DNA from: Amphiscolops sp. MND2022
Taxonomy: Eukaryota
Direction of reading: 5' to 3'
Assembly: GCA_964187785.1 (NCBI GenBank)
Contig: OZ076416.1
Location: forward strand, 38,874,001 to 38,938,000
Length of the DNA: 64,000 nucleotides
A program made the position numbers and the translations under genes. The notes beneath the pieces were generated by a model. The model did no database searches, was not told where the DNA came from, and worked only from the letters and a program-made list of their open reading frames with translations. Below, one piece after another: positions 25,073 to 63,390 of this stretch (position 1 is its first letter; every line of letters begins with the position of its first letter).

Positions 25073-25765
<693 letters not shown>

Positions 25766-35689: not shown

Positions 35690-37215
35690 TGTCGCGTTAT
35701 GACTAACGCTTTAACAAACATAAGTAGGTGCTAAAGTGCAGTCTATATTTGACTAACAAATACAGAAACAAACATGAACTAGAACTAACGTTTGTTTATG
35801 GGGAAGAGAGTTGTAGATAAAGATGGCGGCCATAAGGCGGCGGCCATAACGTGGTAATAATGATGATGAAGTACTGTGACGAGAAAGGAATTGCACAAGT
35901 GAAGAATTCTATATTATACCGCGTATATTTGAAATACGAAAACAGCTATGATTGGTGGCATGTAAACCATGCCTGCTACGCAGCACACGATAAGAAATGC
36001 TTGGCTGTATATATATGGCCAACGCAGGCGAGGAGATTCATTCACTTATCGAAACGGACAGAGCTTAAACTTAATAGCTCTCGTTTCTCTTCACTTCTCT
36101 TCCACTTCTCTCCCCTCACCCCTGCTCTTCTTTCTTACTTTACCCCCTTTCCTCTCCCTTTACTATTATCTTCCCCTTCAGACTTAGAAGGTCTATTTCT
36201 CGCCTTCACTTTCAATTCCGATTGCTATCTAACTCAACAAAACTTCTTGCTTAATAACTCAGATCCAATAATTCTCTTTTAATCATACCCTTGCATCTTA
36301 AAATATTTCTCCACTCATCCTTGATTTAACTTCAACTTCCAGAACCAATCTTCCCTTAAAAGAAATTTCTAACTTAGAAATTTCTCTTCAATTTCGTCTC
36401 CGGTTTGGTGAGTCTGACTATTTAGACCTTTCAGTAGAGATTTCACTCTCTCTGAGACTTTAACTTAGACTATTTTCCGCTGATTTAAACTCGGCGGTTT
36501 CCAAAACCTTAACTTAGACTATTTTCCGCTGATTTCAATTCTGCGGTTGACCAAACTTTAGCTTAGACTATTCTTATTAGAACTAAAATTCTATGAGGTT
36601 GAAGTTACATAAACTCACATAAGAAAAGAGATGATTGAAGTTTTAAAGTGTCATATTATGAAAAAGTCTTATTGCTATTCAACTTTCTACTGAATAGAGA
36701 CATCTAAATCAAAACTCTTCCGTTTACAATAGTACGGATTTGTAAATTTTGTTTGAGAAAAAGATTTCCGAAGAAAAAGGGAAATTCTTATTATTTGTAA
36801 ATAGTTTCATTTTCTTAAATGATAAATTGTAAAAGTTATATTACTTCTTCTTGTAAAGTGAAGTTGTAATCTTTATTAATCTGAGATTTGTAACAATTGA
36901 AAGAAATATTGCTATGTCCAGAAATTGTTCACTTTCAATATTCTCAACTCATTCGTAATTAAACATATTTATTCACCATACATTTTCAGTAAACGGGAAG
37001 CTCATTTACAAACACCGCCTTGCGCGACTCACGCAATTTCTTTTGTTCGCACGTACACGCAAGGCACCCCTTTATCAGTAAGTTGCTAATTTATTTGTTG
37101 GGACTTATACTTGTTAAATCAATAACAGAACCGTCGCGAGATAGTACCTTGTAAAATGCAAACAAGGACTTGACAGATTAAAACTAATAAACAAATTTCA
37201 CCCATGCGTGCGACA
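35690..37215 (+). repeat. 5' LTR (1,526 bp)
   Basis: Direct repeat of 53901-55426 with about seven substitutions seen by eye. TG...CA ends, YY1-like AAGATGGCGG at 35820, AATAAA at 37186. Confidence 0.97.
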
Positions 37216-37218
37216 AAC

Positions 37219-37235
37219 TGGTGCGACCAGTGAGG
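37219..37235 (+). promoter_or_regulatory. Primer-binding site
   Basis: TGGTGCGACCAGTGAGG begins 3 nt after the 5' LTR. Its complement CCTCACTGGTCGCACCA ends in CCA like a tRNA 3' end; the tRNA identity is not determined. Confidence 0.75.
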
Positions 37236-38250
37236 CACCTTTTTCTCTTGTAATAGAGAAGTAAATGAGCTTTCTGTTAGAATCCCTACTCTCAGAAGTA
37301 AGGGTTAATTACTTATTTCTCTTAACATTACTTCTAATTTTCTTCTTTCTCCTACTGCCTCAATATGTGGCTTCTCTAATCTATATAAATCGTAAAACTA
37401 CTAGTAAATACTCTAACAGAATCTCTCCAGCCTAACAGCTTTCGGAAGAGTTTATGCACTACTTTTTCTTTCAATCCCCAAAACCATTTGTTAGAAATGA
37501 TTTACCTTTACGAAAATACTATGAGATTACAGTCAGTCCTAAACAAGAATGAAACTGACTCTATACGCTTTATTTAAAGGCACAGTTGGGAAATACACTC
37601 TAGTCCGGACGGACACAAATTAAGTAAAAGCCCGCCTAGGTCTCCTCGGAGGCTGTTTGAAGGCCGTGAGCCCAGTGGGTATCTTGGAACCTATGTAGCA
37701 TTCCGAGTGGGAAACCTAGTATTCTAGTGATAGTACCCAAGTGATTGCATGATAGTGATCTGGGCCCCACGCACTTAATCCTAAAGACGAGAGTAACTCC
37801 CTCTGTGAACTAGCCGTAGTTATTTTCCTAAAATTAAAGAAAGGCTCAACGAGCGGATGAAAGACCTAGTGGACTGACTGTACTCTTCATAGGTTTTCTT
37901 TGGGTTAACTCGGAGGATTAGTATACCCCGAACTACCCTTTTTACGATAATCTCAACACTAGTGGGATTTGTAAGTATCCCCTAAACTTTGGAATCAGAG
38001 TACGAAATACCGTAAATGAGCCTAACTTCGACTGAGAAGTGCTATTTTCATTTTTGCTAGCAGTGTATTAAGGATTTTATGATTTGTCAGACCTGTCTAA
38101 TAATTATCACTATTAGAATCATAGTACAAACAATTTTTACTTTAACTCTTTGCTGTTATTCTCAAAAGCCAAGAGTATCATACCTCACAGAGTCTTTGGC
38201 TTATTGTTCTTTGCTTCATCTTCTATCCTTTATAATCTCAATAGCTCACA

Positions 38251-39705
38251 ATGGCTGCGCAAAATTACTTGGCTTATCCAGACCTCGGCAGAGACCAATT
38301 CACAGGAACAGACCCAGATCAAGATCCTGAACAATTTATACAGCTAATTGAAAAGAAGTTCCGTTTCTCTCATGGTGATACCCCAGCAAACGGAGCAGCA
38401 CTTGACGACTACAACTTCAGGAGAAAATCCTACTTTGCTACACTACTAAGAGGACCAGCAGCGGAGTGGTTCGAGACAAGTATCACAGACGCTAACACCT
38501 GGCAAGAAATCAGAGAAAGGTTCATCACAAGATTCGCAGATGGCCGAAATAAATTCAGACACAGAATGGAAGCAGAACATGTCACCAGAAGAGATGGAGA
38601 AGAGATAAAGAATTTTCTACACAGAATCAAAATTGTTGTGGGGAAAGGCTGGCCAGATGATCTTGCCGGCGTCGCACAAAACGACAGAAACGCAGAAAGA
38701 GCAGCACAAGACCGACAAAGAAGACAAAGGTGCATCGACTACTCACTGAGAGGCCTAAGACCTCCAAAACTGAGAGAAAAGGCACACGAATATTTAATGG
38801 ATCACCCGAATGCAACCTGGGAACAATTCTCCCAAGCTGTAATAAACAAAGACCTCTCCTACACGGTAACTACCGCCCTAACTGGCGGAGAATCACATTC
38901 GGACCCACTCATACAAGAAATGCGAGACGACCTGAAGGGAATCAAACTACAAATCAAAGAACAGATGAATAACACAATCAACTCAGTAGAGAAAACTGTA
39001 GACCCTAATGCTACAGGTCGAAGAATGGCCACACGATTCTGTGGCTACTGCCGAACAAATGGGCACACACCTAACTGGTGCAGAAAGAAGATGAGAGATG
39101 AAGAAGTGAAGAAGGTTCAAAACGAAGCTAACCCAGAAAGAAGAATAACATTCACCAACGACTACAACAAAAGAACTGGACCTGAACATGGCTCTAGATT
39201 TCAACCAAGATTACCAGATTCAGAAATCAGAAAACTTATGGCTGTGGCACATCAACTAGCACTGGCTGGAGCTATGCAGTCAAATCCTGCCTGGAATCAA
39301 TACGATAGACCACAAAGAAAAAATTTCAACCCAGAACGCCGACCTACGAATACAAGACTCAATCCTGGTAACCGAAGATTTTCACAAGAAGGGAGAAGAC
39401 CCTTCCTAAACAATTCTAACAACTCCAGGAGTGTTTCCCCTGGACCCCAAAGAGCAAGATCTCCGTTCAACTTCAACAGAGACCAGTCTAGCTCCTTTAA
39501 TCGCAACATACAGCCTCTTCCACCAAGGAATAACTCAGTCTTTCACAGACCACTAAACAGAAACGAAAGACCAAACACCCCAACTCAAACTTACGATCAA
39601 AGGTTCCCTAAAACTAATGACATGGGAAGATCCAACACAGTACAGTTTCTCGAAACTGACTACTCGGTGAACTCTGTCTCCGATTTTCGCCCTTTAAACT
39701 ACTAA
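38251..39705 (+). CDS. gag: Gag (484 aa) with CCHC zinc knuckle
   Basis: Gypsy capsid-like N-terminus (FTGTDPDQDPEQFI...LRGPAAEWF), CGYCRTNGHTPNWC = C-X2-C-X4-H-X4-C, and an R/N/P-rich tail. Confidence 0.92.
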   Translation: MAAQNYLAYPDLGRDQFTGTDPDQDPEQFIQLIEKKFRFSHGDTPANGAALDDYNFRRKSYFATLLRGPAAEWFETSITDANTWQEIRERFITRFADGRNKFRHRMEAEHVTRRDGEEIKNFLHRIKIVVGKGWPDDLAGVAQNDRNAERAAQDRQRRQRCIDYSLRGLRPPKLREKAHEYLMDHPNATWEQFSQAVINKDLSYTVTTALTGGESHSDPLIQEMRDDLKGIKLQIKEQMNNTINSVEKTVDPNATGRRMATRFCGYCRTNGHTPNWCRKKMRDEEVKKVQNEANPERRITFTNDYNKRTGPEHGSRFQPRLPDSEIRKLMAVAHQLALAGAMQSNPAWNQYDRPQRKNFNPERRPTNTRLNPGNRRFSQEGRRPFLNNSNNSRSVSPGPQRARSPFNFNRDQSSSFNRNIQPLPPRNNSVFHRPLNRNERPNTPTQTYDQRFPKTNDMGRSNTVQFLETDYSVNSVSDFRPLNY

Positions 39706-39783
39706 GGTCTCCGAAAAATCGTAACAGCAGCACAGCCCCACTAAAATTTAGTCTTAATCTTTATTATTTTGCTGCCGGAGACC
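39693..39783 (+). promoter_or_regulatory. -1 programmed ribosomal frameshift signal (gag-pol)
   Basis: T TTA AAC heptamer in gag phase (39693-39699), a 6-nt spacer, then stem GGTCTCCG (39706-39713) / CGGAGACC (39776-39783) with inner GCAGCA/TGCTGC. The -1 frame is open into the protease. Confidence 0.85.
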
Positions 39784-42700
39784 CACAAAAAGATAGTGGC
39801 TTAGAAATCGAATTTCTACTAGACACTGGGGCAACATCTTCAATCATCACCTACAGGACCTTTAGAGAACTTTGCCAGTTTCAACAAGACCTAAAACTTA
39901 GTAGAAGCAATAACACAACACGGAACTACTCTGGGCAGATCATCCCTATGATGGGATACATCACCCTCAAACTCTACTACGATTCCGATGGACAACATAA
40001 CTTCCCATTAACAGTCTGGATAACAGAGATGAAAACCCAAAACCTCCTTGGAATGAATTTCTGCCAAGAACAAGTTAACAAAATACACTTTGATCTTCCT
40101 GGCATAGAACTCAAAAGACCTATAAATACTTTTTGCTATGGTAGCCTACAACTCAACAAATGTTACCCCTATCTATCACAAATTCTCTCAGTCCGAATTC
40201 CTCACTCAATGTATATCGAACCAAAGACGACAAGATGTTACAAATTCGCACCGGAAAACACTAATAACTCATTTCCTCCTGGATCTACGTTCCTACCGAA
40301 CAGGAAGGCAGTTTCTACTGGACTTAACTTCATTAATGTCCTCTGCACACGATTTGAGAAGACTTTACCAATCGTCATGGAAAACAACAAAAACCATACA
40401 ATCACTTTAGTAAAAGGAACTATCGGATACTCAATGCTTGACGTATTAGACCAAGAAATTCCGAAATACCAAATTAGAAACCCGACAGAACTCGCCTATG
40501 CTATCCTAAACGAAAACGAAGAATACAACGACTGTTTCCTATTACACTCTACCATCCCTTCACAAGATATGAACGATTGCCTCAGAATAGAAGGAGGAAA
40601 CTCGAAAACAATACTCAGCAGACCAGACCCTATCATCATCTTCGTCCCGGCCGACCTAAAACCAGCCAAAGGTTTCTCAAAAGGAATCCTAACGAAAATA
40701 CCTTCACTTAAGGATACATGCGCAAAACAGAAACCACAGAAAGGAGAAATCATACCCTACTGGGACGAAACTCTGAAACGATTTATATATGTTCTGATTA
40801 CGAAAGCAAAATCAAAAGACAAGATTGACCCACAATTGCTAGTTCAATCTCTCGAAACTCTAAAAGCACACGCCAAAATGAGCGGCATCAAGACTATATC
40901 CATGCTACGGGAAGCCTCAGAGCTAGAAGACTTCCAATGGCAAGACGTCACTCAACTCATTCAAGACGTATTTGCATACTCAGAAATACAACTCCGAATT
41001 TATACAAGAAACGAACTAGATGTCTATGCCATGACTACAAGAGGAGACCCCGAATACGTACTAGAAGATGAGATACAACAATTTTCCGAGCAATTTCATC
41101 TCAAACATAGAGAGCTGGAGACAGAGTTCACAAGCGACGCAAAGTCCTGTCAACCACCCTGCGATGAGCAATTTAAAATCTTCAGGCCAAAAGAAGACAA
41201 CGAACGACTGATCGAGTACTACCTTCAGTATCAAAATAAAGAAGCAGTGCGATACATTAAAGAATTCGACTTTCGCTACTCAGACCTCACAGACGAAGAA
41301 CTGGTTCTCCTAATAGACTTACTAATGGACGCAAGAGATGTATACTCCCAACACAAATTTGACGTAGGGAAAACCAGACAAAAATTTAACATTAAACTAG
41401 AACCTGGAGCAATTCTAAAGAGACAGAGACCCAGCAAAGTACCACTTCACCTACGAGAAAAGCTAGAGAAGCTACTCACACAACTCAAAGACGCTGATAT
41501 CATCAGAGAAATGGGCGACGATGAAGAAATGGGATCCTTATTTGTGAATCCTATTATACTACAACCAAAACATGACTATGTCAAGCTGATCATAGATGCG
41601 AGATATCTAAACTCGGTGACAGATCTAACAAATTATTCCTGGCCCTTAGAACCGATCCAAACCATAATGACACTAATAAATGGAAACATCTTCTCAGTAA
41701 GTGATCTCTCCTGTGCATTTCACCAAGTCCCATTAGACGAGCCCACGCAAAAACTCACCAGCTTCATCATTGGCGGAAAACAATACACCTTCACCAGGGG
41801 ATTCTATGGACTCAAGGGATTACCAAGCTTCTTTAGCAGAATGATGACTATCCACTTCGAACCCCTCATCAAAAGGAAACAGGCAATTACATACATCGAC
41901 GACACGTTGATGCAAGCCAAAAACAAACAAGAAATGTTCACGGTAATTCAAGAATACCATAACTTACTGCGGAAAGCCGGACTCAAGGCAGCACCAGATA
42001 AGACACTCTTCTTCTTAAGGAAAGTCAAGTTTTTGGGACACGTGATAGCAGCCGAAGGAATACAACCCGTAGCAAAACGAGTAAAAGACCTACACAATCT
42101 CAAATCACCAAAGACCAAAACCGAAGTGAAAAGCTTCTTAGGAGCTTTGGGCTTCTATAACTGCTACATCAAGAATCTTCACGTCGATAGTCGACCTTTT
42201 TACGAACTCACCAAGAAAGATACAAATTTTTGTTGGAACCAAGAACACGAAGACCTTTTCCAGGAAATAAAGAAAAGAATTACCGAAGACACAGTGCTCG
42301 CAATACCCTCGACAAAATACCCCTTTCACATACACGTCGACTCGTCAAACGTTGGGACAGGATGTATCCTCATCCAACAATTCCCAGAAGGGAAACGGAT
42401 CATTTCCTTCAACTCAAGAGTTTTCGCAAAGGAAGAACAAAAGATGTCCACACTACACAGAGAATTATGTGGCATAGTCTCAGCTCTTCAGACGTATGAA
42501 CACTACATCATCGGATCTCCCTTCCCCATCTACCTATACTGCGATCACAAGCCGATTCTTTATCTCTGGGGAAGAAAGGGACAAGTTTCACCCCGTTTTT
42601 TTCGGTACCAAGTAATTATATCTAAATTCCCGAATCTCAAGATAATTTGGACTCCAGGAAGCAACCTAGCCTTCCCTGATATACTCAGTCGAAACGTCTC

Positions 42701-45202
42701 CATCGAGGAACACAAGAAACATCAACTCAGTCACAAAGTCATCCCAACTGACATACACTTTTTCGACGAACATGGAACCCAAGTACACTACAAAATCAAA
42801 CACGAAGAAAATGAAGAGACATCCAAGAACGACTTTTACCCCATCTTGTACGAGAAGGGAAAAGAACGGAAAGTACTTCATCTCCAAAATGATGGGAATA
42901 ACTTCATAGTTAACTCTATCTACGAGGAACCTAACCTGCCGAAAGTAGAGTCAGCACAGAGTTGCCTCGACGCTGGAAGAGAACTTGGAAAATTCGAAGA
43001 ACTAAGAATCAGGTCTGGAACACGGGATAGCACATCGGATTTATCACAAAACACTTACAGCTCCATCAACAGTGATACGGATGACGAAGCCCTCACAGAC
43101 AATCAGAGTCATGAAATTAACGAGACCAACTACGAGCTCAACACAGAAGATCTCATCGCGCGTAACCCAGGTCTTCCCAAAAACGCAAAGGCAATAGAAC
43201 ACCTCGATCTACCTACAAATTCAACTGAAAAACAAAAGACACCAACACAGGAACTCGTCAGACAACTTGATAAACTATCCAAAGAAGTAGAACTAAACGT
43301 TACAACGATCTTACAAGAACAAATAAATGACCCGGTACTCAGCGTAGTCCGACAATGGGTAAGAACAGGAAACAAACCCGAACCAAAGTCACCAGAGTTA
43401 CAACACTCAAAAGGCCTCATGCGTTACTTTCAGGAATTCGACAGATTATCTATAGAAGGCCAAGGAAACCTCCTTTGTTATAACGAGCCAACTGATGACC
43501 CAACAGACGAGAATCTGAGAATCTGTCTACCCCTCTCTCTATTTTTAGCTTGCTTTCGTATGGGACATTACAACGACCTCGGCGGCCACATGGGAGCAGA
43601 AAAGACCTTCCTCAATGCTAAGAGATTTTACTACTGGCCAGGGATGCACAACTGGATCTGTGCCCTCACACAAGATTGTGTTAGCTGCCAATCTAACAAA
43701 TCCAAACAACGGAGAAACAACGAAGTCCCACTGGAAGACTGCGAAACCGAAACTCAAGTATTCAGAACCATCCACATTGATCACAAAGGACCACTCAATC
43801 CTCCCAGTCGTGGAAATTCACATTGCCTTCTGATCATCGACGCCTTCTCACGTTACCTGATGGCATACCCAGTCAGAGACACAGGAGCACAATCTACAAT
43901 CAACGCGATGGAAAAATGGATTATGCACTATGGCATCCCTCAATCTATCGTACATGATAGAGGAACAGCTTTCGTGAACACTGAATTCGTCAATTGGGCT
44001 AAAGAGTTTGGCATTACACTTCGACCAAGAACCGCACACTCACCCTGGACAAATGGCAAAGTGAAACTCAAAATCAACACATTGCAAGATACTGGAGAAA
44101 CTTCTTAAACGAATCAGGAAACAACTGGGCCCAACTAGCTGCCAAATTTGCATTCGCCCACAACACAAGCATCAACTACACAACTGGAAAGACCCCCTAC
44201 GAGATAGTGTTTTGCAACAAACCACAGATACCTATGAGTCTGAAGCTGGGACTCTACAGGAACAAAAACAAGAACTGCAAATCACAATTCTGTCAAGGAT
44301 TACCTCCTCATTGCCATAGCGAAAACCAAGTCAAAAACGAACTACTAAATGGACTATTACGACCACAACTATCACAAAGCTTATTGGAACGAGAAACAGC
44401 CTTCAAAAAGGTCTACTCATCCACATACGAAAAGTGCAGAAAACAAACAGCTCAATCACACGCCTACAGGAACAGATTTAAACTTGGAAACCACCTCAAC
44501 ATAGGACAAAAGGTTCTGCTAGAAAACCATAGAAAAGATCTCTCCAAAAGCGAAAAACTCCAACAACTGCGACTAGGACCCTTTACGGTTACCAAACGAA
44601 TTACAAATACAACCTACCAAATAATAGAAGATCAAAACCCCGAGAATCTCCGAACTGTACATAGGAATCATCTAATAGAATACTTTCCTAAAGAAGAAAC
44701 ACTCCCCCCTCTTATCGAAGAATACACTACTCCCCACCGTGGAGACACGGATTTTTATAACAATCTTGTCAAAGGAAGAATTGAACAACTTAATGTTTCA
44801 GAACCACAAAAACTCGGAGACCTCTGCATATTGCCAGTACGGAATCAACAAAACCAAATACTTGCCCGCAAAAGAACGCAAACCCCCCAGAGCACAGACT
44901 CTGGTATCATCTCTCCAGAAAATCAGTTGTTGTCAACTCCCAAGACCCCCGATCAGCCTTCTACATCACATCCTCAAAACGCAGCAACCCCTATCCTGAC
45001 ATTAACTCAACGTCAACCAACTCCAGCACCCCCAACTAACACCCCGGCATCTTCTACCAAGTCAACGACTCCCTTGCAAGAATTACGAAGAGCCGTTGCC
45101 CGCCAAATAGAGAGAAATCCGCGTTATCAGCGAGCACAACCCAATCAACCAGCGCTACAGTCCATACTTCGTGAAAGGACTAGAATTGGTTACAAAGAAT
45201 AG
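39693..45202 (+). CDS. pol: Pol polyprotein: protease, dUTPase-like remnant, macrodomain, RT, RNase H, integrase; 1-nt frameshift at ~44063
   Basis: LLDTGA (39822-39830); YIDD (41892-41903); RNase H HVDSS/RELCG/CDHKP; integrase HHCC (GGHMG...CVSC), IHIDH, HDRGTAF and NGKV(E). After the frameshift the reading continues ETQNQHIARYWRNFL...TPYEIVF...LGPF (GPY/F motif) to the stop at 45202. Confidence 0.93.
40600..41006 (+). other. TARG1/OARD1 (Poa1p-like) macrodomain embedded in Pol
   Basis: RFIYVLITK...SLETLKAH...ISM...QWQDVTQLIQDVF..SEIQLRIYT parallels human OARD1 RYIYYLITK...SLEAMKSH...LSM...QWENVSAMIEEVF..TDIKITVYT (recalled sequence). Confidence 0.8.
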
Positions 45203-45209
45203 CCTTACT

Positions 45210-45605: not shown

Positions 45606-47615
45606 CCGGATATTACCGCTTATTTGAAAAATATTATCTTTATTATTATTATTATAACGATTAGACCATATATGTACATAGAAAACGCAAAAAAAGTGTG
45701 TCATAGGAAGTCCGAACTCCAAAATACGGGTGTACATAGAGAGTTTCTCAACTTGGGAAGTTATATTCACACTGCAGCAAAAACAAATATAAACCATCAA
45801 ATAGTGTCCAAATACAAGGCTGCATGCACAGAGTTGGAAATTTCCGCCGGCTGGTTGATGAGATAACCAACCACCACTCAGGACGCTCTATGACATCATT
45901 CGTTCACGCTGGAAACGCGTTTGCGCTGCCGTTCAGCGTACCACTCATCGAATTGCGTAATCAGTCTTGTTTGTCTTCATTCCGAGACATTAAACGGGCA
46001 CTTTTCAGTTTTATTATTTTTTGATATCTTTTCTTCTACGGTTTTTATTTTCACATTTCTACTAACGTTCCAAAAATTCAACGATTGAAATTATTAGACA
46101 ATTTTTGGCCCTTAAGTTACAAAGAAGCCTCAGATCGAAAAACCAGCGTTTTAAGAGGAATTTAAAATGGACGTGGGTTCATAAAACATCCTTGTTGCCC
46201 CGGACACTCCACTGATTCGATTTACAAGCCCTGGACTTGCGACAAAGGCACTAATTGACAACATTTTGAAGTCAAACCCTTGTTCACTGCCAGTGTTGGA
46301 TTTACTCGACTCCCGAATTGACGCAAATTTATCGTCAAAACTTGTTAATAATATTACTGGAGAGCATGTAATACAAACTCCACCACCAAGCGAAACTTCT
46401 GAGCCAACTCCCGAAGCTGAACAAGCTGAAAAGAAACAAAAAAAAGTAATGAAACCAAAACAGTGTTTTATCAAACAGCGTCAGTTTTGACCCTACATGC
46501 CGAGTTTCTTTGTCAGCACATCAAGACGACCAAAATCGCAGACTGTGTTGTGAAGGGGATTCGGGTCGTATTGAATTACATCTTCGGTATTACGGGTATG
46601 CTATGTTATAGCATCAAATTGTTTCTTTCTATTCTGAATGTTAATCATACAGCGTCTTACATGTTCAGCAAAAACTAGAAATTACACGGTATTACGGTTT
46701 AGGCGAAGGAACCTCTCAAGACTGTCCAGACAGAGAGTCGATCGAGGAACAAGATGAGATTCACTTTGATTCCCTTTATGTCTTTTCTTGGCGAAACTCG
46801 GGACTTACTCGACAGTTAATCGTAGAGTGATAATTATTAGAGTCGCCTTGACGTAATATGTCCTTTCAAAGGGCGTTTGGCTTGACGCCATTTCATATTT
46901 TTCCAAGAGTCAGCTGCCGTTTTGGCACGCTAACCTTTTTCGCAATTAGTCAGTTCAGAAAAACATAACCGGACACTTCATCGGAAGTTTTTCAAAAAAT
47001 CAGGAAACATTTACATTCGCATTTGCTACATGACACACAACCAAAAATTGGTAGAATACGAGAAAAATATGCTTAAAAACCTAAAAACAGAACATTACTT
47101 GCATAATACGATGCCTAAACATTGTTTTGTTGATGTTAGTAAGCATCATTGGCTTACAAGTGCAAATATAAAAGAGTTATATTATTAAATACCCTTGCCA
47201 CGTAAGGACTGAAAATTAGTGCTCAAAACATTTTAAGCCAAAACTTGAAAATGACACTCCCATTTTGGGCTCAAAAGATATATTTCGTTGGGATTTCACC
47301 CAATGTAAACATTGGTATAAGTTTTAATACTCTATTTTAAACCGTTAAAAAGAAACAGAGTCAGGAAAAGAGCATTCGCAAAAAAATGGGGGCTTTTGTA
47401 TTCATTAATTGTCCTATAATATTAGTTTTTGAGTCATATATTGTCTGATAATCGAGAACCAAAATCATCTAGTCTAATAGAGAGTCTAATAGTTAAAAGG
47501 TTGAGACCGTCACCAGGCCATAAGTGTAGCATAAGAATTGAATAGAAACAGTGTAGAATGCTGTTAGAATTGCTGTCTAGTATGCGGAATGAAATGAACA
47601 ACGAATGAGAAGCTG

Positions 47616-47668
47616 TGACGTCAGAATTAGATTAGGTCACGTGACCTCCGATAATCCCCGCTGGGCGG
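47616..47668. promoter_or_regulatory. Internal promoter-like motif cluster
   Basis: CRE TGACGTCA (47616-47623), palindromic E-box GGTCACGTGACC (47635-47646) and GC box GGGCGG (47663-47668), in an AT-rich non-coding stretch. Confidence 0.45.
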
Positions 47669-48061
47669 ACATAAAGAATCTAATAATATCAAATAACAAG
47701 TAATAAATGTTTTCGGCCTTGAAAAGAATGTTAATCAAGACTTAGACCTTTGGAAAATATTGCAATTGTAATCTTATCACACCCAACTATGTTGGCATAT
47801 ATTTTTTGAGAAACGAAACTCTTGCTATTTTTAAACATTTGCGAGTTAATTTTTTCCGCTAGGACATAGAGAGTCTGGCATGTCACAGAGAGTCTGAATA
47901 ATATTAAAAATTTGTACATAGAGAGTCTAATAAAAGTTATTATTATTATTAGACTTTTTATCTATACAATTTGTGCAACCCCGAGAAGGAACTTACGAAA
48001 AGCAGCAAACACAAAAGCGTAGAAAAATAAAGTATTTCCTGGAGATGAGAGGCAATAATGC

Positions 48062-48703
48062 CTACTCAATCTCCAGGAAACCGCCCCTCTCGGCAAGCTT
48101 CCGCAGCTGAGCCGCCCGCTCTTGCATAGACCATACAGAATAGAGACGCATCCACTGTCCCCGCTCAAAACCAGTGAGTTGAGCATAGCCACGGATATAT
48201 GCTCGTAATTGGAAAATGACCATCTCCCCTATGGGTGACAGCAGAGTTCCCTCCCACCTGGCTCCCCAGTTTGCCCGGAGGAAACTAATCAAAGGGTTAG
48301 GAATGGGCGCTACAGGAACAGCGAATCCCGGTGTTCCCCGAAGAGAACTCGCTATATTCGCCCAATTTTCCAGCCTGTCTATATCTCTCATAGTAAAGAG
48401 ATTCAAGAAGTGTTGGAGGCTGGAGTCCTCCAAACTCCCCTGAGCCATGGTGACAGACCCAGCCTGCGGGGCTACAGTACCCACAAGCGACCCAGAAGAC
48501 GCAGGTGCAGCGCGGGCTCCAGATGATGAAGTAGTAGACGAGCCCCCACGAGCTCCAGCGGACGACGACTGCCCAGCCACGGAAGGCCTCACAGAAGACG
48601 AAGACGTCCCACTAGCCGACACTACACCAGTAGAGGAGGACCCCGCAGATGTAGTGGACGCGGAAGTTGAAGGGCCACCTCCTTGCTCCTCATCCGTTGT
48701 TGC
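48062..48703 (-). CDS. Antisense accessory ORF (Ser/Gly/Thr-rich N-terminus, ~120-aa Trp-containing domain); start uncertain (first ATG at 48448)
   Basis: 214 stop-free codons in a GC-richer block with sharp AT-rich borders. Globular-looking C-terminus LQHFLNLF...RANWGARWEG...GQWMRLYSVW. Confidence 0.55.
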   Translation of the reverse strand, partial: ATTDEEQGGGPSTSASTTSAGSSSTGVVSASGTSSSSVRPSVAGQSSSAGARGGSSTTSSSGARAAPASSGSLVGTVAPQAGSVTMAQGSLEDSSLQHFLNLFTMRDIDRLENWANIASSLRGTPGFAVPVAPIPNPLISFLRANWGARWEGTLLSPIGEMVIFQLRAYIRGYAQLTGFERGQWMRLYSVWSMQERAAQLRKLAERGGFLEIE

Positions 48704-48982
48704 TCATCCCTAAATACAAATACGATTTATTTAAAGTCATGCAAAATATTTATAATTATCGATTGAAGCAAACCATATATATATCACTATTCAACCTAGT
48801 CATCAGATATAAAATATAATATCCTACCCGGACATTTGTCTAGTTTACTACGACGACTCATGAAGTCGTAATCCTCTCTCCTCTACAAATACCCCAAAAA
48901 AACGCAATGAAATAACTGATGATTCCATTCTCAGATTTGCTATGTTTGATGAACACACACCAAAAGGCATAACAGCTCACTG

Positions 48983-49204
48983 ATGATCATAATATTCAAA
49001 ATCGACAACCGACTTTCCCAGATCACTGACATTCAGAAGGAACCCTCAACACAGAACATAATCATACAAGCCTATGCAATCGCAGAGGAAGTGAGTGAAA
49101 CCTACACGTGTGTGCCAGCATCACCTATCTACCCACTACTGGAGAGTCTACTATATAATAACACTACTACCGAAGTCTTCACAAGAGCCAAGTCAGTCCT
49201 TTAA
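48983..49204 (+). CDS. Small accessory ORF (73 aa; upstream part possibly degraded)
   Basis: Its TAA overlaps the next ATG (TAATG at 49202-49206). Confidence 0.45.
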   Translation: MIIIFKIDNRLSQITDIQKEPSTQNIIIQAYAIAEEVSETYTCVPASPIYPLLESLLYNNTTTEVFTRAKSVL

Positions 49205-49599
49205 TGTCCTCTCCCGCAGTTGCCGTATTTCGAGGAAATAAGTACTACTTCCACACTCAATTTCAACCTCCGGTTCCTTGGAAACCTATACAACTCACGG
49301 GTGAATACGAAATACAGTCAATCTTTTACGAGATCACTACCTCGGCGATACAAGTCCGTATACTCACACCAGAAGACAAAGAAGCACTAGTCCTCTTCCC
49401 TATTCACTTCGGGTCCAAGGAATACGCCTACCTATTCCTATCGTTCCAACAATACATACTCCAACACCCCGCTGTCCTTAAAGACAAGGCTTTCGACGGC
49501 TTGGTTTATTTTATGGATATCACCCTAGTAACTAACCCCTTTGAAGAAGAGGTTAGAATCAAATATCTTCACACCCTAGTTGAGACCTATGATGTTTAA
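49204..49599 (+). CDS. Small accessory ORF B (131 aa), unknown function
   Basis: ATG-initiated, protein-like composition, overlapping both neighbouring ORFs. Confidence 0.65.
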   Translation: MSSPAVAVFRGNKYYFHTQFQPPVPWKPIQLTGEYEIQSIFYEITTSAIQVRILTPEDKEALVLFPIHFGSKEYAYLFLSFQQYILQHPAVLKDKAFDGLVYFMDITLVTNPFEEEVRIKYLHTLVETYDV

Positions 49600-49933
49600 A
49601 ATACAACTCAAATTCCTCTGGCGTCACCCGGAAACAAACACACTTCTTGAGATCCTCTCTATAGCCTGGAAAGAGAGCGCCCTCGCACTTCAGATTGAAC
49701 TCCACAGCCTCCGACCACATCAAACGGGACATTGGCTCATCCCTGTCGCCACAGACTCGACAGAAGCAGCAGATCTTGCGAAGGCGCTAACCGAATACAG
49801 GCAGATCGCTTACTTAGATCACGTTCACCCTCTGACCCTTCATCTCCTCAGCAAGTTAATCGATTTTCTCGACGCTCAGGGACGTAACAAACACTCTCCC
49901 AGTCTAAAATCAATCAGTGATAACTACAGCTGA
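49589..49933 (+). CDS. Small accessory ORF C (114 aa), unknown function
   Basis: ATGATG overlaps the last 11 nt of ORF B; similar motif pattern to ORF A. Confidence 0.65.
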   Translation: MMFKIQLKFLWRHPETNTLLEILSIAWKESALALQIELHSLRPHQTGHWLIPVATDSTEAADLAKALTEYRQIAYLDHVHPLTLHLLSKLIDFLDAQGRNKHSPSLKSISDNYS

Positions 49934-50158
49934 ACCTTCATAAATGGTTGAAGTTAGTTTCTTTTACTATTTTTCTTCGGGCACTCTTCCAATAGTAGTG
50001 AGGTTACTACTATAAAATTTTAACCTCCGCTTAGTGTCGTGCCAGCTAAGCTGCCGGTTTGATATTACGGCTTGCCTTTTTACGGCCTTACCGAGGATCC
50101 ACATATCTATAAAAAACATTTTTCCTGATTGATTGTCAAAGACTGAAGAATTTCAAAA

Positions 50159-52306
50159 ATGAAATTATTTTACTTACTCTTTTTATGCGCCCATTACGCG
50201 CCCGTTGTGATATTACAACGTCCAACGCCAAACCTCGCTAGCGTTGCTAAAAAACTGCGAGTAACTCATTTCGACTGCGGCGAAATGACCCAAAATAAAC
50301 TCTACGCATTGAATCAAGTTGAACAATGCAATGTGGCACCTGAAAACTTAGAGGTAAGTCGTGCGAGCGTAACGTTATACACTAAACATTTCCGCCGCAC
50401 TATCAACGCCACTATGTGCCGTGTGAAACATCAGAGTGAAGAATGGCATTGTGGTTATCACGACCACTCCAGTATGTCAATCCTACACGACAGAATCACC
50501 AGCGATCTTTCCCTGTCACCCGAAACCTGCAAGGCAATGGGTGAAGGCAAAGAAGTCATAATCCATGGACAACCCCTCAAATTTAAGAAAGGAGTGAAAC
50601 AAGTACAGACGAGAAACGCCAAATACGGAAAGAGTTGGGACGGTGTACGCGACCCAGATACCCGAAATGAATGCAAGACAGGTGGCTGGATCAAAAGAGA
50701 AACATTCGAATCTCACATCCAAGATGCTGAATTATCAGTAAAAACTCGAGATGGAAAAGTCCTGACTCCTTTTCAGATGGTCCTTCCCTGCCCCTTAGAA
50801 CAACTAGGTTGCGAAACGACGTCACTGGACCCATACGCCTACACATGGGCGGAGCCCGATAATTGCGTGCTTGCAGTACATAGGAAAGAAATCGTGAACA
50901 TGATCAAACACGGATCTAACTATTATATTGTAAGCGGCAACGACTCCACTACCAAATTTTTATTCGAAGTCTACAACAGACCACAAAAGTATTGCAACAA
51001 ACCAGACGATGTATACCCGACCAACTGCGAATCCCTGTACGTTTCAATCCAACTTGGTGGCTTCGACATGACGTCCGGCAGACGACTCGGCATCTCCATG
51101 GGAGAGACATCTAAACTACAATACTATTCACCCGAAGATGGTTCTGGTAATGGCCGACTCCACCTCTTTTGAGGCCCGAGCGACCCCAACCCTAATACAC
51201 CTCATTACCTCAACATGGATTACGAGTTACACCAAGGGACAAAGCTTGATTATCTCTTCTTTGAGAGCACTCGTCTCCTCGAAGCCTCAGAAATCCAACT
51301 CCTCAAAGCTCAATGTGAACAAGAACGAACTCAAATCCTCACTATCTTGATGTTATCAATGGAAAATCCTCGCCTCGCCGGATACATGCTCACGGGAAAT
51401 CGCTCTATGTTCCTGAACACAGATGGCAGCCTCGCTTGGCTCTACCACTGTCCGGAATCCCACTCACCTCTTCACACGATGAACCGATGCTACGACCGCA
51501 TACCCATCTTCTACAAAGGAGTGGTTGCCTTCGTGGACCCAATCACCCGACAGACCTATCCTAACGCGAACGCCCAAAATTGCAGCGATCGCATTAAGAA
51601 CCTCTTTCAATTGGATATGGAAGACAAAGACTCCTGGTTTACCCTCACTCCTTCACCCGAACATCGCGACCGACCTGCTATCTTCGGACCCAAAGACATA
51701 CAACCAATGATTACTAGATCCTTCCCTGGTTCACAAGACGCGGGAATGTACACGCCTAAACAACTCTCAGAATTTTGGGACAACATCCTCATCAGCGCAG
51801 CGTCTCGCAACGCCCTCCAGAAGTTCTCACGAGAGCTCATCACACCCTCAATGGCCCATAGTGGACCTGAATCATTCGCGTATTATGCACCCCGTACCGA
51901 TTTTTATGTTGACGGCATGATATCACCCGGTTACTTCAAAAATCAGTTCCTTGAAACATTCGGAAGTATATCTTACGTACTAGAACTTTGCGGCGCGTAT
52001 TTTGGCGCCTTTCTTTTCATTAAGTTCGTAATAGATATCACGGTACTCGTCTTCCGATACTTTGAACTTCGTCACCTTACAGGTAATACACTGAGCTTCA
52101 CTAAAACATTGCTCAGTGCTTCGTACAATCTTTTCTTTACCTCAGTTTTAACTTCTGTATTCACCCCGCGGGCCCCTTACGAGGATAGCGTTGAAGATAA
52201 AAACGCGAAAATTGAAGATAATGGAAAAGAAGTAGAACTCCAAGCACTGAAGAAAAAGGAAGAATCACTTTATCCCTCAGTACAGAGCTTCGTAGCTCCA
52301 ATATAA
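50159..52306 (+). CDS. env: Envelope-like glycoprotein resembling chuvirus/Monjiviricetes class III fusion proteins; one in-frame TGA at 51170-51172
   Basis: Signal peptide; cysteine pattern HFDC..LNQVEQC..ATMCRVK..WHCGYHDH..PETCKAM; N-glycosylation sequons NAT, NDS, NCS; C-terminal TM segment (~51975-52055). The two ORF-track segments are in the same frame, separated by one stop. Confidence 0.82.
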
Positions 52307-52352
52307 AGCCAAAAACATTTTCAAGTTCATTCATTTATTAGTTTACTTTTAG

Positions 52353-52934
52353 AATCTAGAACCACTATTCGACCTACCAAGCCTGGATGACGATACCCTG
52401 GATCCTATCCCAGAAAGTGACCTAGAAATCGAACCACTATCTCCTTCAGACTTTTTGACACCAGACTCGTCTACAACAATTACCTTTCTTCCAGACCCTC
52501 CTGACTCAACGGTCCCATCATCACCCTCAAAATCTCCAACTCCAACTTTCACACCTACGCCATCCGACCAACTCCCCTTTCCTTTGTCATTCACAGGAGA
52601 CATACCACCAATCCCGTCCGCACAACATCCTCCTAGATTTGGTGGAAAGGACATCAGAAGAAACACACCACAAAAACACTATTATGAATGGAACAACAAG
52701 ATAGCCGATGAAGCACCCTTACAGAAGCAACATAAAAGGGAATACTTCACTAGAAGAGCCAGATACGTTAAAAAACCTAGATTTAACGCGAACCTAAAGT
52801 ATTCTCTACTCCCACAGTTTTCAACCTGGAAAATCGTCTTTTGGGACAACAAAAGACAAGAATACACTATTGAGAACCCTGCACTGAAGGGACAGCGGCT
52901 GACAGTTCCCTTAAGATCCATATCTGCACAATGA
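52353..52934 (+). CDS. ATG-less ORF (193 codons; acidic and Pro/Ser/Thr-rich, then basic), probably a spliced exon
   Basis: The frame opens exactly after a polypyrimidine tract and TAG (tttacttttag, 52342-52352). No in-frame ATG; its TGA overlaps the next ATG (ATGA at 52931-52934). Confidence 0.55.
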   Translation, partial: NLEPLFDLPSLDDDTLDPIPESDLEIEPLSPSDFLTPDSSTTITFLPDPPDSTVPSSPSKSPTPTFTPTPSDQLPFPLSFTGDIPPIPSAQHPPRFGGKDIRRNTPQKHYYEWNNKIADEAPLQKQHKREYFTRRARYVKKPRFNANLKYSLLPQFSTWKIVFWDNKRQEYTIENPALKGQRLTVPLRSISAQ

Positions 52935-53863
52935 GCCAAAAATTAAACCCAAATGCCACCCCCTTCATCCCAAAACACAACCCCTACCTACCGAACCCTA
53001 ACCCCGACTGGCCACCCATGCCTGAAGAAAACGATCAAGAAGAACATGCAAACCTCGAAGGAGTGGAAAGACTAAATATGTGGATTAGTGAATGGGAGAA
53101 ATCAACTAGTACCTATAACCAGGGAACAAAAAGCACACCGCTTCGAAAGTCCTTCCCTTTAACGGACATTAATCAACCCCAAAAGAAGTTAGAAAACCGA
53201 ATCAAACTGCTATGTACCTCAATCGAAGAGGCACGAGATAAACGTCAACAATTGGAAGTCACTATCTTCGATTTGCTTGCGACAATCAAACACCAAAGCT
53301 CCCTCCTCAGCAGCCAGATTGAAGCGAACGGTAAAGATTTTATCACTTGGCAAGTTTCCGCCTTCTCCACACTTTACCGAAAAGCAAGGACCTCTCCAGA
53401 CGATCCGTTTCACAACATCAAAAACAGCTTCGCGAGCCCTATTTACCCAACATACCTATCAGGCTGCAAAATTTCCTTCAGAATATTCCCTTACGGGATA
53501 AACATCTTCCGTGGGACCCACTCTTCTATTAGCTGTGAACTTCATTATAGCGACTTCACTCACCCACAAACATGGCCCTTTGATAAAACAGTAGAAGTCG
53601 AAATCCTTGATCAGAAGGACGAAGGCAACAAGTGGTCCGCACTTTTCCCAATCAACCCCCACAACCACGAAGATACCCTTCACAATCTCTACACGCACCT
53701 GAACCTCCTCAAAGAAGACTTCATCCCTCATACGAAGTTACTTGTCAACTTCAGAGAAGCATTCCTAAACAATGACTCTATAATATTTAGAATCAAATTT
53801 AAAGAACCTTCCCCTAAGTCACTCGCGCTACATAACTCCCCCTCCTTTCAGTCTGACCCATAA
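52931..53863 (+). CDS. PAM2-motif + coiled-coil + TRAF-C/MATH domain protein (310 aa)
   Basis: N-terminal SQKLNPNATPFIP (PAM2-like) and heptads at ~53175-53325. TRAF-domain landmarks FITWQV, SFASP..SGCK, GTHSS, WPFDKTVEVEILDQ and NDSIIFRI at ~53330-53810. No RING or Zn fingers. Confidence 0.85.
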   Translation: MSQKLNPNATPFIPKHNPYLPNPNPDWPPMPEENDQEEHANLEGVERLNMWISEWEKSTSTYNQGTKSTPLRKSFPLTDINQPQKKLENRIKLLCTSIEEARDKRQQLEVTIFDLLATIKHQSSLLSSQIEANGKDFITWQVSAFSTLYRKARTSPDDPFHNIKNSFASPIYPTYLSGCKISFRIFPYGINIFRGTHSSISCELHYSDFTHPQTWPFDKTVEVEILDQKDEGNKWSALFPINPHNHEDTLHNLYTHLNLLKEDFIPHTKLLVNFREAFLNNDSIIFRIKFKEPSPKSLALHNSPSFQSDP

Positions 53864-53888
53864 CTCATTTATTTTCTTTCATCCTGCC

Positions 53889-53900
53889 AGGGGGGTGAGC
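53889..53900 (+). promoter_or_regulatory. Polypurine tract
   Basis: AGGGGGGTGAGC immediately before the 3' LTR. Confidence 0.75.
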
Positions 53901-55426
53901 TGTCGCGTTATGACTAACGCTTTAACAAACATAATTAGGTGCTAAAGTGCAGTCTATATTTAACTAACAAATACAGAAACAAACATGAACTAGAACTAAC
54001 GTTTGTTTATGGGGGAGAGAGTTGTAGATAAAGATGGCGGCCATAAGGCGGCGGCCATAACGTGGTAATAATGATGATGAAGTACTGTGACGAGAAAGGA
54101 ATTGCACAAGTGAAGAATTCTATATTATACCGCGTATATTTGAAATACGAAAACAGCTATGATTGGTGGCATGTAAACCATGCCTGCTACGCAGCACACG
54201 ATAAGAAATGCTTGGCTGTATATATATGGCCAACGCAGGCGAGGAGATTCATTCACTTATCGAAACGGACAGAGCTTAAACTTAATAGCTCTCGTTTCTC
54301 TTCACTTCTCTTCCACTTCTCTCCCCTCACCCCTGCTCTTCTATCTTACTTTACCCCCTTTCCTCTCCCTTTACTATTATCTTCCCCTTCAGACTTAGAA
54401 GGTCTATTTCTCGCCTTCACTTTCAATTCCGATTGCTATCTAACTCAACAAAACTTCTTGCTTAATAACTCAGATCCAATAATTCTCTTTTAATCATACC
54501 CTTGCATCTTAAAATATTTCTCCACTCATCCTTGATTTAACTTCAACTTCCAGAACCAATCTTCCCCTAAAAGAAATTTCTAACTTAGAAATTTCTCTTC
54601 AATTTCGTCTCCGGTTTGGTGAGTCTGACTATTTAGACCTTTCAGTAGAGATTTCACTCTCTCTGAGACTTTAACTTAGACTATTTTCCGCTGATTTAAA
54701 CTCGGCGGTTTCCAAAACCTTAACTTAGACTATTTTCCGCTGATTTCAATTCTGCGGTTGACCAAACTTTAGCTTAGACTATTCTTATTAGAACTAAAAT
54801 TCTATGAGGTTGAAGTTACATAAACTCACATAAGAAAAGAGATGATTGAAGTTTTAAAGTGTCATATTATGAAAAAGTCTTAATGCTATTCAACTTTCTA
54901 CTGAATAGAGACATCTAAATCAAAACTCTTCCGTTTAAAATAGTACGGATTTGTAAATTTTGTTTGAGAAAAAGATTTCCGAAGAAAAAGGGAAATTCTT
55001 ATTATTTGTAAATAGTTTCATTTTCTTAAATGATAAATTGTAAAAGTTATATTACTTCTTCTTGTAAAGTGAAGTTGTAATCTTTATTAATCTGAGATTT
55101 GTAACAATTGAAAGAAATATTGCTATGTCCAGAAATTGTTCACTTTCAATATTCTCAACTCATTCGTAATTAAACATATTTATTCACCATACATTTTCAG
55201 TAAACGGGAAGCTCATTTACAAACACCGCCTTGCGCGACTCACGCAATTTCTTTTGTTCGCACGTACACGCAAGGCACCCCTTTATCAGTAAGTTGCTAA
55301 TTTATTTGTTGGGACTTATACTTGTTAAATCAATAACAGAACCGTCGCGAGATAGTACCTTGTAAAATGCAAACAAGGACTTGACAGATTAAAACTAATA
55401 AACAAATTTCACCCATGCGTGCGACA
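53901..55426 (+). repeat. 3' LTR (1,526 bp)
   Basis: Same length and termini as the 5' LTR, followed by the ATAC TSD. Confidence 0.97.
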
Positions 55427-63220: not shown

Positions 63221-63390
63221 ATCTGGTGTTTCTTCCTGCCTATTTGTTTTTTTTGCGTCAAATGCAATATCATTGAAACACTAGGAATATATTTTATTCT
63301 ACCGAAAGTCTGGATCAGTTCGTTGGGCGCATTTTTGAGTGATCGTCTGTAGTTTACCGCAATAACCTCCTTGTCGGGTATTCTCGTAAA

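Follow-up and report, generated by a model that had tools for sequence, protein, structure and literature searches.

A young Ty3/Gypsy family with a predicted class III envelope gene and eight conserved accessory genes in Amphiscolops sp.

Accessory-gene complexity is usually seen as a hallmark of vertebrate retroviruses, and Gypsy elements typically have one or two extra genes. The window analysed here, a 64,000-nucleotide stretch of Amphiscolops sp. MND2022 DNA, contains an element that an earlier note had described as an intact, 19.7-kb Gypsy retrotransposon organised like a complex retrovirus.

Structure of the element

The element, a Ty3/Gypsy LTR retrotransposon copy at positions 35,690–55,426, has the order LTR, primer-binding site (PBS), membrane ORF, gag, pol, ORF3, antisense gene, a trio of small ORFs, RNA motif, env, X, TRAF and LTR. 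It is inserted in a 2,047-bp tandem array. Its features are as follows.

35,686–35,689, plus strand: 4-bp target-site duplication, left-hand copy (its partner lies at 55,427–55,430)
35,690–37,215, plus strand: 5′ LTR, 1,526 bp, TG...CA ends, 7 substitutions relative to the 3′ LTR
37,219–37,235, plus strand: PBS, complementary to the 3′ end of host tRNA-Met(CAT)
37,265–37,435, plus strand: 56-aa ORF after the PBS, one strongly hydrophobic segment
38,251–39,705, plus strand: gag, 484 aa (Retrotrans_gag)
39,660–45,202, plus strand: pol, −1 frame; protease, macrodomain, reverse transcriptase (RT), RNase H, and integrase with an SH3-like C-terminal part
40,620–41,040, plus strand: TARG1/OARD1-like macrodomain between protease and RT (E 3e-24 and E 8e-12)
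45,210–45,605, plus strand: ORF3, 131 aa (128 in most relatives), probable small-domain paralogue, dN/dS 0.06–0.11
45,655–47,939, no strand assigned: nested non-coding repeat, 2,285 bp, with short inverted ends that match imperfectly; the insertion site is a (TTA)n tract
48,062–48,707, minus strand: antisense gene (196–235 aa in relatives), start out of frame in the window
48,983–49,204, plus strand: 73-aa ORF with a conserved splice-acceptor-like site upstream, dN/dS 0.02–0.06
49,204–49,599, plus strand: 131-aa ORF, stop–start overlap with the 73-aa ORF, dN/dS 0.06–0.08
49,589–49,933, plus strand: 114-aa ORF, overlap with the last part of the 131-aa ORF, dN/dS 0.06–0.08
49,994–50,086, plus strand: conserved predicted RNA motif before env, a hairpin with loop pseudoknot plus three stems
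50,159–52,306, plus strand: env, 715 codons, predicted chuvirus/gB-type class III glycoprotein (PF24664)
52,353–52,934, plus strand: gene X, open for 193 codons, the first directly at a conserved acceptor (52,352/52,353)
52,931–53,863, plus strand: TRAF protein, 310 aa, with PAM2-like motif, central region and TRAF-C (MATH) domain; start overlaps the X stop
53,886–53,900, plus strand: polypurine tract
53,901–55,426, plus strand: 3′ LTR, 1,526 bp

Much of the earlier description was recovered. The LTRs are near-identical (7 of 1,526 bp differ) with TG...CA ends, and the 4-bp target-site duplication, PBS and polypurine tract are present; domain matches support gag, protease, RT and RNase H as well as integrase, and PF24664 supports the envelope-like gene. 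The coupled 73-, 131- and 114-aa ORFs, the antisense ORF, the ATG-less ORF behind a splice acceptor and the MATH/TRAF ORF are likewise in place. Four features are additions to that list: the 56-aa transmembrane ORF, the TARG1-like macrodomain, the PAM2-like motif and the structured RNA before env. The description of the copy as intact had to be abandoned. A frame change interrupts pol in the integrase core (between 44,003 and 44,108), a stop codon at 51,170–51,172 lies in frame within env, and the antisense gene has its start out of frame through a short deletion close to its 5′ end. The Ty3/Gypsy family to which this disabled copy belongs has multiplied recently.

The lengths first given, 19.7 kb for the element and 8.7 kb for the cargo downstream of pol, both include the nested 2,285-bp repeat. 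This repeat is missing in all 20 other copies and also occurs by itself as a dispersed sequence, 1,900 or more of 2,271 bases being covered in 42 of 49 matches; it is foreign to the retrotransposon family, and the remaining cargo is a family trait. The nested repeat rules out 19.7 kb as the family length, close relatives measuring 17.6–18.2 kb; sister families F and G still reach 19.2–19.5 kb owing to 2-kb LTRs.

The order protease, RT, RNase H, integrase in pol is that of Ty3/Gypsy elements (Metaviridae). A TTTAAAC heptamer at 39,693–39,699 lies in −1 frameshift register with gag. Against the PDB, the RT matched Ty3 best (E 1e-31), followed by caulimovirus-type and foamy virus enzymes (1e-22) and MLV (1e-18), which places it by sequence nearer to the Ty3/Gypsy enzymes than to those of retroviruses or caulimoviruses. 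Identity to named Gypsy-type proteins is only 25–31%. The tRNA-Met(CAT) that matches the PBS is of the elongator type, as judged by its G1–C72 pair and T loop, and families A–H have a PBS identical to that of the window element. The macrodomain is near-canonical in family H, where a Lys and an Asp that we take to be the catalytic pair of TARG1 are both kept; in the window's subfamily the glycine loop is lost and this Asp is changed, so that the domain looks degenerate there.

Relatives of the element and selection on its genes

The family is young and abundant. LTR pairs are 99.3–100% identical in most of the copies measured from families A, B, D, F, G and H, and 17 of 20 copies have a 4-bp target-site duplication. 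All sampled relatives carry the cargo, apart from the nested repeat. Each of seven accessory frames is open in 17–20 of 20 sampled copies, with dN/dS mostly 0.02–0.16, in a sample that was chosen by env or cargo similarity, is thereby biased towards open frames and amounts to only three or four independent comparisons. The expectation that the accessory ORFs would be conserved across copies with dN/dS below 1 is thus borne out in these frames, on which purifying selection mostly equals that on gag and env. The 56-aa membrane ORF is also under purifying selection (pS 0.25–0.37 versus pN 0.06–0.07) and raises the count of conserved accessory genes to eight; its length is 56 aa in 18 of 20 copies of families A–D and in both family E copies, and it had no Pfam match.

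These data bear on the reading that the cargo is host and foreign DNA captured in a single event or neutrally. This holds for the nested repeat, for the sense 88-aa ORF at 48,447–48,713 and for a 140-aa LTR ORF; neither ORF is conserved, and we dropped both as genes. For the other eight frames, which are shared and under strong purifying selection, this reading is refuted, and we consider it exceedingly improbable as an account of the cargo. One distant relative carries only gag-pol-env-X-X, so most accessory genes are not essential to the wider clade.

Envelope gene, RNA motif and accessory genes

Env is open in 19 of 20 sampled relatives, with dN/dS of 0.04–0.07. It has hydrophobic segments at the N terminus (signal-like) and at the C terminus (membrane), and 14 cysteines recur in 89% or more of the aligned rows. 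Its Atlas score was 0.97. Sequence comparison with the PDB returned nothing significant; the best named Foldseek matches of the predicted structure were chuvirus-like glycoproteins (E 1e-20) and HSV-1 gB (E 1e-8), for a weak model with pLDDT 57.8 and TM-scores of 0.11–0.27. Together, profile and model assign the predicted protein to a recognisable viral fusogen type, the chuvirus/gB class III. An intracellular, non-infectious giant Gypsy like Burro is the unlikely alternative, in which env and the other genes would serve inside the germ-line cell and no particle would leave; the work done there, equally unlikely in our estimate, would be membrane targeting, survival, and the damping of stress or death signals. 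Burro, a planarian element, combines TRAF-C with env homology, and infectivity goes unreported in the available portion of its description (PMC6431247). In favour of this alternative, env lacks a furin-type site, none of 38 pattern matches in IMG/VR was a relative on a viral contig, and the relatives encountered were all high-copy genomic families or contigs. To our knowledge, however, class III fusogens need no furin cleavage, and the full-length env with its two terminal segments, conserved cysteines and low dN/dS speaks against a purely intracellular role, as does the conservation of a second, small membrane protein.

The predicted RNA motif before env is present as a single copy in the window and as 1–5 tandem copies in relatives. 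Seven of its pairs have changes on both sides, a count that none of 500 shuffles attained, and Rfam searches of the element and of four relatives yielded no hit close to the gathering score. The linker of the motif contains the word TATAAAA in families A–E and TATAAATA in family H. Given this TATA-like word, the motif could be a promoter. The cargo would then rely for its expression on internal promoters and not on regulated splicing and export, X being a transcription activator or something else; the acidic N terminus of X and the internal promoter that Tor env can use (PMC4402516) agree with this reading. Against it, the pseudoknot and stems show compensatory changes, a sign of selection on RNA structure, and conserved acceptors precede both X and the trio. 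We regard expression from internal promoters as rather unlikely.

Gene X, with an acidic N terminus, a basic patch and a conserved 75-aa C-terminal domain, follows env in all families; among distant loci it does so in three of five, and the other two end inside env. The acceptor before X is kept in families A–E amid diverged spacer. Neither a splice donor nor a start codon was found for X in these families, and the family E gene likewise lacks an ATG. A donor-like site early in env, the candidate source of a start codon, is kept in A–D and lost in E, and a search with one pattern for spliced retrocopies at the X acceptor gave no match. X had no Pfam hit in the 32 homologues tested out of 98, and no Atlas or PDB hit. 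In the TRAF protein, four family representatives showed no RING or zinc-finger Pfam hit, the mark of E3-ligase-type TRAFs, and no cysteine-rich N terminus.

ORF3 and the 131- and 114-aa ORFs are likely paralogues of one small domain, by profile comparisons in which shallow pairs were mostly not significant. The domain had no Pfam or Atlas match and no BFVD match at E 0.001 or better; its best PDB score was Z 4.7, with none of 48,161 chains at 5 or above (Tudor-, KOW- and PH-like folds were considered). Profiles gave no link to the small domain or to MATH for the 73-aa ORF, X or the 176-aa extra ORF of family E, nor between the 73-aa ORF and the 71–72-aa ORFs of F–H, which are alike in size and position.

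The antisense gene is the most variable gene of the element and its product had no Pfam, PDB or Atlas match. Its frame has no stops (pS 0.81, pN 0.21), and the other five frames, used as a control, have 5–19 stop positions. The gene is intronless in families A–E. In families F–H, 17 of 18 loci have it split by a GT-AG intron on the minus strand, always in phase 0 and 119–219 nt long. Intron length varies by non-multiples of three within F and G, exon lengths are constant, and exon 2 starts at a point that aligns with W65 of the window's antisense core. The spliced antisense gene and the conserved splice acceptors fit an expression plan like that of complex retroviruses.

Proposed working of the family and its precedents

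The reading that we favour, and hold to be moderately probable, is that the family is a complex endogenous virus with a chuvirus/gB env and eight accessory genes, which passes between cells and manages its own RNA and host defences. Spread between cells and the countering of host defences are likely because a virus-type env and eight conserved accessory genes occur together. In the proposed scheme, full-length RNA would be translated into Gag and, by −1 frameshifting, into Gag-Pol, with tRNA-Met priming reverse transcription. Spliced sense RNAs would use the acceptors before the trio and before X; the stop–start overlaps would hand ribosomes on along the trio (73-, 131-, then 114-aa ORF) and likewise from X on to TRAF. 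A separate spliced minus-strand mRNA would encode the antisense protein. Env would fuse membranes and so carry particles from cell to cell, most plausibly from soma to germ line. X, the oldest accessory gene, is a tentative candidate, with somewhat less than even chances, for a Rev/CERV-like regulator of RNA export with the RNA motif as its target; splicing of X's own message would remove the region that holds this motif. The RING-less TRAF protein may be a decoy in TRAF signalling and the macrodomain may act against ADP-ribosylation, each about evenly balanced between right and wrong. Roles for X, the antisense protein and the small domain are drawn by analogy only, because none has a Pfam, PDB or Atlas match.

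Complex retroviruses are exemplified by HBZ of HTLV, by Rev/RRE of HIV and by Vpu. The present family resembles them in its spliced antisense gene, small accessory genes, structured RNA near env and small membrane protein, and has the several conserved accessory genes, one of them antisense and spliced, that characterise such an organisation. By contrast with Retroviridae, which are marked by a retroviral RT, a separate C-terminal RNase H and a class I Env, the RT is Gypsy-type and the predicted env is class III; the element is not a member, and the resemblance is one of convergent organisation.

Among known elements, Burro/GYPSM1 is similarly a large invertebrate Gypsy with MATH/TRAF-C, accessory ORFs and an env that resembles mononegavirus glycoproteins (PMC6431247). 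Burro, however, exceeds 30 kb, and a single polyprotein running from gag to pol holds most of its domains, with env and TRAF-C between gag and protease and with BIR, BCL2 and ankyrin motifs (PMC6431247). In the window element, env and TRAF are separate ORFs after pol, an antisense gene, a paralogue array and a macrodomain are added, and the scanned ORFs gave no Pfam hits to BIR, BCL2 or ankyrin. The gB-type env is widespread in Ty3/Gypsy as the 'ancient errantiviruses' of Chary and Hayashi, which share near-identical copies and a gag-pol with a separate downstream chuvirus/herpes gB env (PMC13524379). Here, unlike in those elements, at least 2.8 kb and four genes lie between pol and env, and two genes follow env. 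For non-insects, the prefilter of that survey accepted a pol–env distance of no more than 1,000 nt, and its main text, as available, leaves TRAF and macrodomains unmentioned (PMC13524379).

For X, the model by analogy is CERV of the C. elegans Gypsy element Cer1, encoded by a spliced accessory gene on which the export of unspliced RNA depends and which is the one such gene described for Cer1 (PMC10309623). Plant Retand/Tat elements likewise have a long region from pol to the 3′ LTR with antisense ORFs and tandem repeats, but are a plant lineage with a TRP28 domain (PMC11963269), whereas here the antisense gene lies amid sense accessory genes and env. The sORF2 of the Drosophila MDG1 group is a small transmembrane accessory protein that replaces env (PMC11952523); the 56-aa membrane ORF coexists with env and lacks an N-terminal myristoylation motif. 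Oikopleura Tor is another env-carrying invertebrate Gypsy, with three ORFs described and an env that is spliced or driven by an internal promoter (PMC4402516). As for the novelty suggested for the combination, literature searches found no element with all parts, but the parts are known singly, in gB-type errantiviruses, Burro (TRAF and env), Cer1 (CERV) and Retand (antisense ORFs).

A bolder reading, doubtful in its entirety, is that of an undescribed, deep-branching, infectious invertebrate Metaviridae lineage with an independently evolved complex-retrovirus toolkit. X and the new pseudoknotted RNA would form a Rev/RRE-like pair, accompanied by an HBZ-like spliced antisense gene in rapid turnover, a small membrane protein, an enlarged set of effectors of unmatched fold, and TRAF and TARG1 captured against innate defence.

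The spacing of genes in this family suggests that env surveys demanding adjacent pol and env miss such lineages. A candidate RNA export system, a candidate family of structured RNAs and a candidate small protein fold are new contributions of this family, as are candidate antagonists of TRAF and of ADP-ribose signalling. Its accessory genes would have been gained stepwise on a gag-pol-env-X core, and natural variants are available for testing how. As a young, high-copy Gypsy clade with env and eight selected accessory genes, it shows that such complexity can arise in Metaviridae.

Architecture, size and placement of the element

The element in the window has the following features:
35,690–55,426: LTR element, delimited by its LTR pair and flanking duplication
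40,620–41,040 (+): macrodomain in pol
45,210–45,605 (+): ORF3
45,655–47,939: nested repeat (2.3 kb; non-coding, dispersed, short imperfect inverted ends)
48,062–48,707 (−): antisense gene
48,983–49,933 (+): trio of coupled 73-, 131- and 114-aa ORFs
49,994–50,086 (+): RNA motif, before env
52,353–52,934 (+): X, after env
52,931–53,863 (+): TRAF gene

The near-identical LTRs, target site duplication and primer site described in the earlier note are borne out: the 1,526-bp LTRs have TG...CA termini and differ at 7 positions, a 4-bp duplication flanks both ends, and the same genome has a tRNA-Met(CAT) gene whose 3′ end the primer site matches. Pol (domain order PR–RT–RNase H–IN) is in the −1 frame relative to gag, with a TTTAAAC heptamer in register upstream of the gag stop. 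Gag and these pol domains are present, but gag-pol is not intact as claimed, a frame change inside the integrase core breaking pol in this copy. Its env carries one in-frame stop, and the start codon of its antisense gene is no longer in frame. The insertion is hosted by a tandem array of ~2,047-bp units (31,911–35,689 and 55,427–55,741). Elsewhere in the window are tandem RT-like fragments of non-LTR type (18,326–22,067), an ORF that we take to be NUDT21/CPSF5-like (25,073–25,762), a duplicated 327-codon frame (26,387–29,625) and inverted arrays of 17-bp subterminal repeats (58,045–58,368 and 63,371–63,939), suggestive of DNA transposon ends.

A search with env of the 1.07-Gb genome of the host, a eukaryote and, judging by the TRAF matches, probably an animal, scored 112 places at 68 to 100% identity, from which we sampled near subfamilies A–D (about 80–99% DNA identity) and sister families E–H (env C-half 68–80%). 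The family is young and large: the two LTRs of most A, B, D and F–H copies share 99.3–100% identity (E is at about 99%, C lower), 17 of the 20 A–D copies have a 4-bp duplication, and the primer site is identical across all sampled groups A–H. For a related env cluster with 850 members, nothing in this genome exceeds 59%, which points to similar expansions in other genomes. Among solved structures, the RT is best matched by Ty3. In a quick RT tree without labelled errantivirus, Burro or Tor sequences, relatives at 40–97% form a long-branch group (30 of 68 rows, SH-aLRT 100), outside which the named Gypsy-type proteins (25–31% identity) fall.

The 19.7 kb first taken as the size of the element is inflated by the nested repeat, which is missing from all 20 other copies. 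With 40 of 165 candidates scored, 42 of 49 repeat matches span at least 1,900 of 2,271 bases; all seven other repeat copies inspected sit within (TTA)n tracts, and no copy of the LTR element contains the nearest one (99.8%). The repeat is probably a microsatellite-targeting non-autonomous DNA transposon. Near relatives with complete LTR pairs measure 17.6–18.2 kb, and in families F and G, which are more distant, LTRs of ~2 kb bring the length to 19.2–19.5 kb. Within the gag leader, a segment of ~500 nt (37,560–38,050) has 84% mean column identity among A–D, has no Rfam match and is missing from E–G, where leaders are short; it is possibly a packaging or translation element.

Selection on the accessory genes and their products

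Eight accessory genes accompany gag, pol and env. Pairwise comparisons of the window copy with subfamilies C and D (protein-guided alignments, three or four independent comparisons) gave dN/dS values of 0.05–0.11 for gag, 0.04–0.07 for env, 0.06–0.11 for ORF3, 0.02–0.06, 0.06–0.08 and 0.06–0.08 for the 73-, 131- and 114-aa ORFs, about 0.07 for X and 0.11–0.16 for TRAF; the antisense core gave 0.12–0.38 (versus B–E, only where dS was unsaturated). Among the 20 A–D copies, selected through env similarity, frames are open in 18 for ORF3, the antisense gene and TRAF, in 20, 17 and 20 for the trio, and in 19 for env and X. These values, well below 1, and the open frames in 17–20 of 20 copies indicate a cargo under selection and speak against a one-off or neutral capture. 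Of the ~8.7-kb cargo described earlier, 45,655–47,939 is foreign, but ORF3, the antisense gene, the trio, env, X and TRAF are retained as selected genes. Two other candidates, a sense 88-aa ORF and an LTR ORF, fail the selection test. A 56-aa hydrophobic ORF directly 3′ of the primer site is kept in 18 of 20 A–D and both E copies, and its pS clearly exceeds its pN; family H has an unlike hydrophobic ORF of 40–46 aa at this position, and F and G have none. Family E has one more ORF, of 176 aa, which lies between its antisense gene and its trio (locus L021, 2,323–2,853) and has no Pfam match.

ORF3 and the 131- and 114-aa ORFs probably share a small domain. Families F, G and H each have two or three clearly related copies of this roughly 107-aa domain, and a profile built from these copies alone scored the window 114-aa ORF at 23 bits (0 of 200 shuffles), ORF3 at 8.7 bits (0 of 200) and the 131-aa ORF at 5.2 bits (1 of 200); profile–profile scores were 19–29 against shuffled maxima of 16–17. 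The model of a family H member (pLDDT 85.7) has four strands and two helices, with no clear structural match in BFVD or the PDB. The last gene encodes, as proposed, a TRAF protein: its TRAF-C domain is nearest to TRAF5 and TRAF4 structures, no RING is present, and 19 of 20 A–D copies retain a PAM2-like motif that scores below the Pfam cut-off. The TARG1-like macrodomain in pol was found in 18 of 120 pol proteins retrieved and is degenerate in the subfamily of the window copy.

The envelope assignment is upheld. Both env halves match PF24664, the Atlas neighbours are Monjiviricetes glycoproteins (score 0.97), and 14 cysteines are nearly invariant in a 45-row alignment. Structure searches with a model of low confidence (pLDDT 57.8) give hits to chuvirus-like glycoproteins (E 1e-20) and to herpesvirus gB (E 1e-8), both with low TM-scores. 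This env belongs to the known gB-type class, described in Ty3/Gypsy in the available text of PMC13524379.

The antisense gene, X and the RNA motif

The antisense ORF stands as a gene: only the minus frame is both stop-free and marked by selection. In 17 of 18 F–H loci it is split by a minus-strand GT–AG intron, always in phase 0 and 119–219 nt long, with exon lengths constant within F and G. From residue 65 onward, the window protein can be aligned with exon 2 of F, G and H1 (0 of 300 shuffles match the score); alignments of exon 1 and the H2 exons with that protein were not significant. A minus-strand intron would survive reverse transcription of the sense RNA, from which we infer a separate spliced antisense transcript. 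This is also the most variable gene in the element. Family H loci L036–L039 have env 97.7–100% identical and antisense exons only 54–58% identical (DNA); between A and B, the antisense protein is 72% identical with dS 1.7, against an env dS of 0.01–0.08. Divergence so far beyond that of its neighbours suggests module exchange or diversifying selection.

The start of X coincides with a TTTAG acceptor that A–E conserve; in F–H the gene has an ATG of its own and a site resembling an acceptor. A search of 1.84 billion representatives with the C-terminal domain of X gave 98 relatives, and none of the 32 tested has a Pfam family. X follows env in three of five distant loci (env 40–43% identical). 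One of these, the 13-kb L108 from a metagenome collection, carries only gag-pol-env plus two genes with the X domain; macrodomain, trio and TRAF are all missing. X is thus the oldest accessory gene found.

The RNA motif upstream of env occurs in one to five tandem copies. Among 11 related sequences, seven pairs are changed on both sides in the pseudoknot and stems that we propose, and none of the 500 shuffles or slid controls reaches this covariation score; Rfam holds no match. The motif lies in a region predicted to be absent from an X message after splicing. The RRE, Rev's element, likewise sits in a spliced-out region, and the motif and X may resemble RRE and Rev in this placement. A live alternative is that the motif is a promoter, as it contains a TATA-like word and the available text of PMC4402516 offers a precedent in Tor env. 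Families F, G and H have a different tandem stem-loop unit (L026, 2,714–3,210; L039, 3,434–4,170), located before a 72-aa ORF or before env; it is 51–61 nt long and in many copies in F and G, and longer in H, with apparent compensatory changes.

Precedents and the combination

Each part has a precedent singly. The available texts describe TRAF-C together with env in Burro giant elements (PMC6431247), a spliced factor for RNA export in Cer1 (PMC10309623), Retand elements with ORFs in antisense orientation (PMC11963269) and MDG1 elements with a small ORF for a membrane protein (PMC11952523); varied single ORF3s are known from rotifers (PMC5408684). The available text of PMC6338049 has no TRAF or macrodomain content. 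Our searches of the open literature turned up neither a Gypsy pol with a TARG1-like domain nor an element with the full combination; related elements may be recorded in Repbase, Dfam, subscription journals or the supplements of PMC13524379. The novelty suggested in the earlier note applies to the combination within the open literature searched, but not to its single parts. The anatomy and selection seen across these copies show that this env-bearing Gypsy clade is real, under selection and unusually complex; its expression, infectivity and accessory-protein roles we infer.
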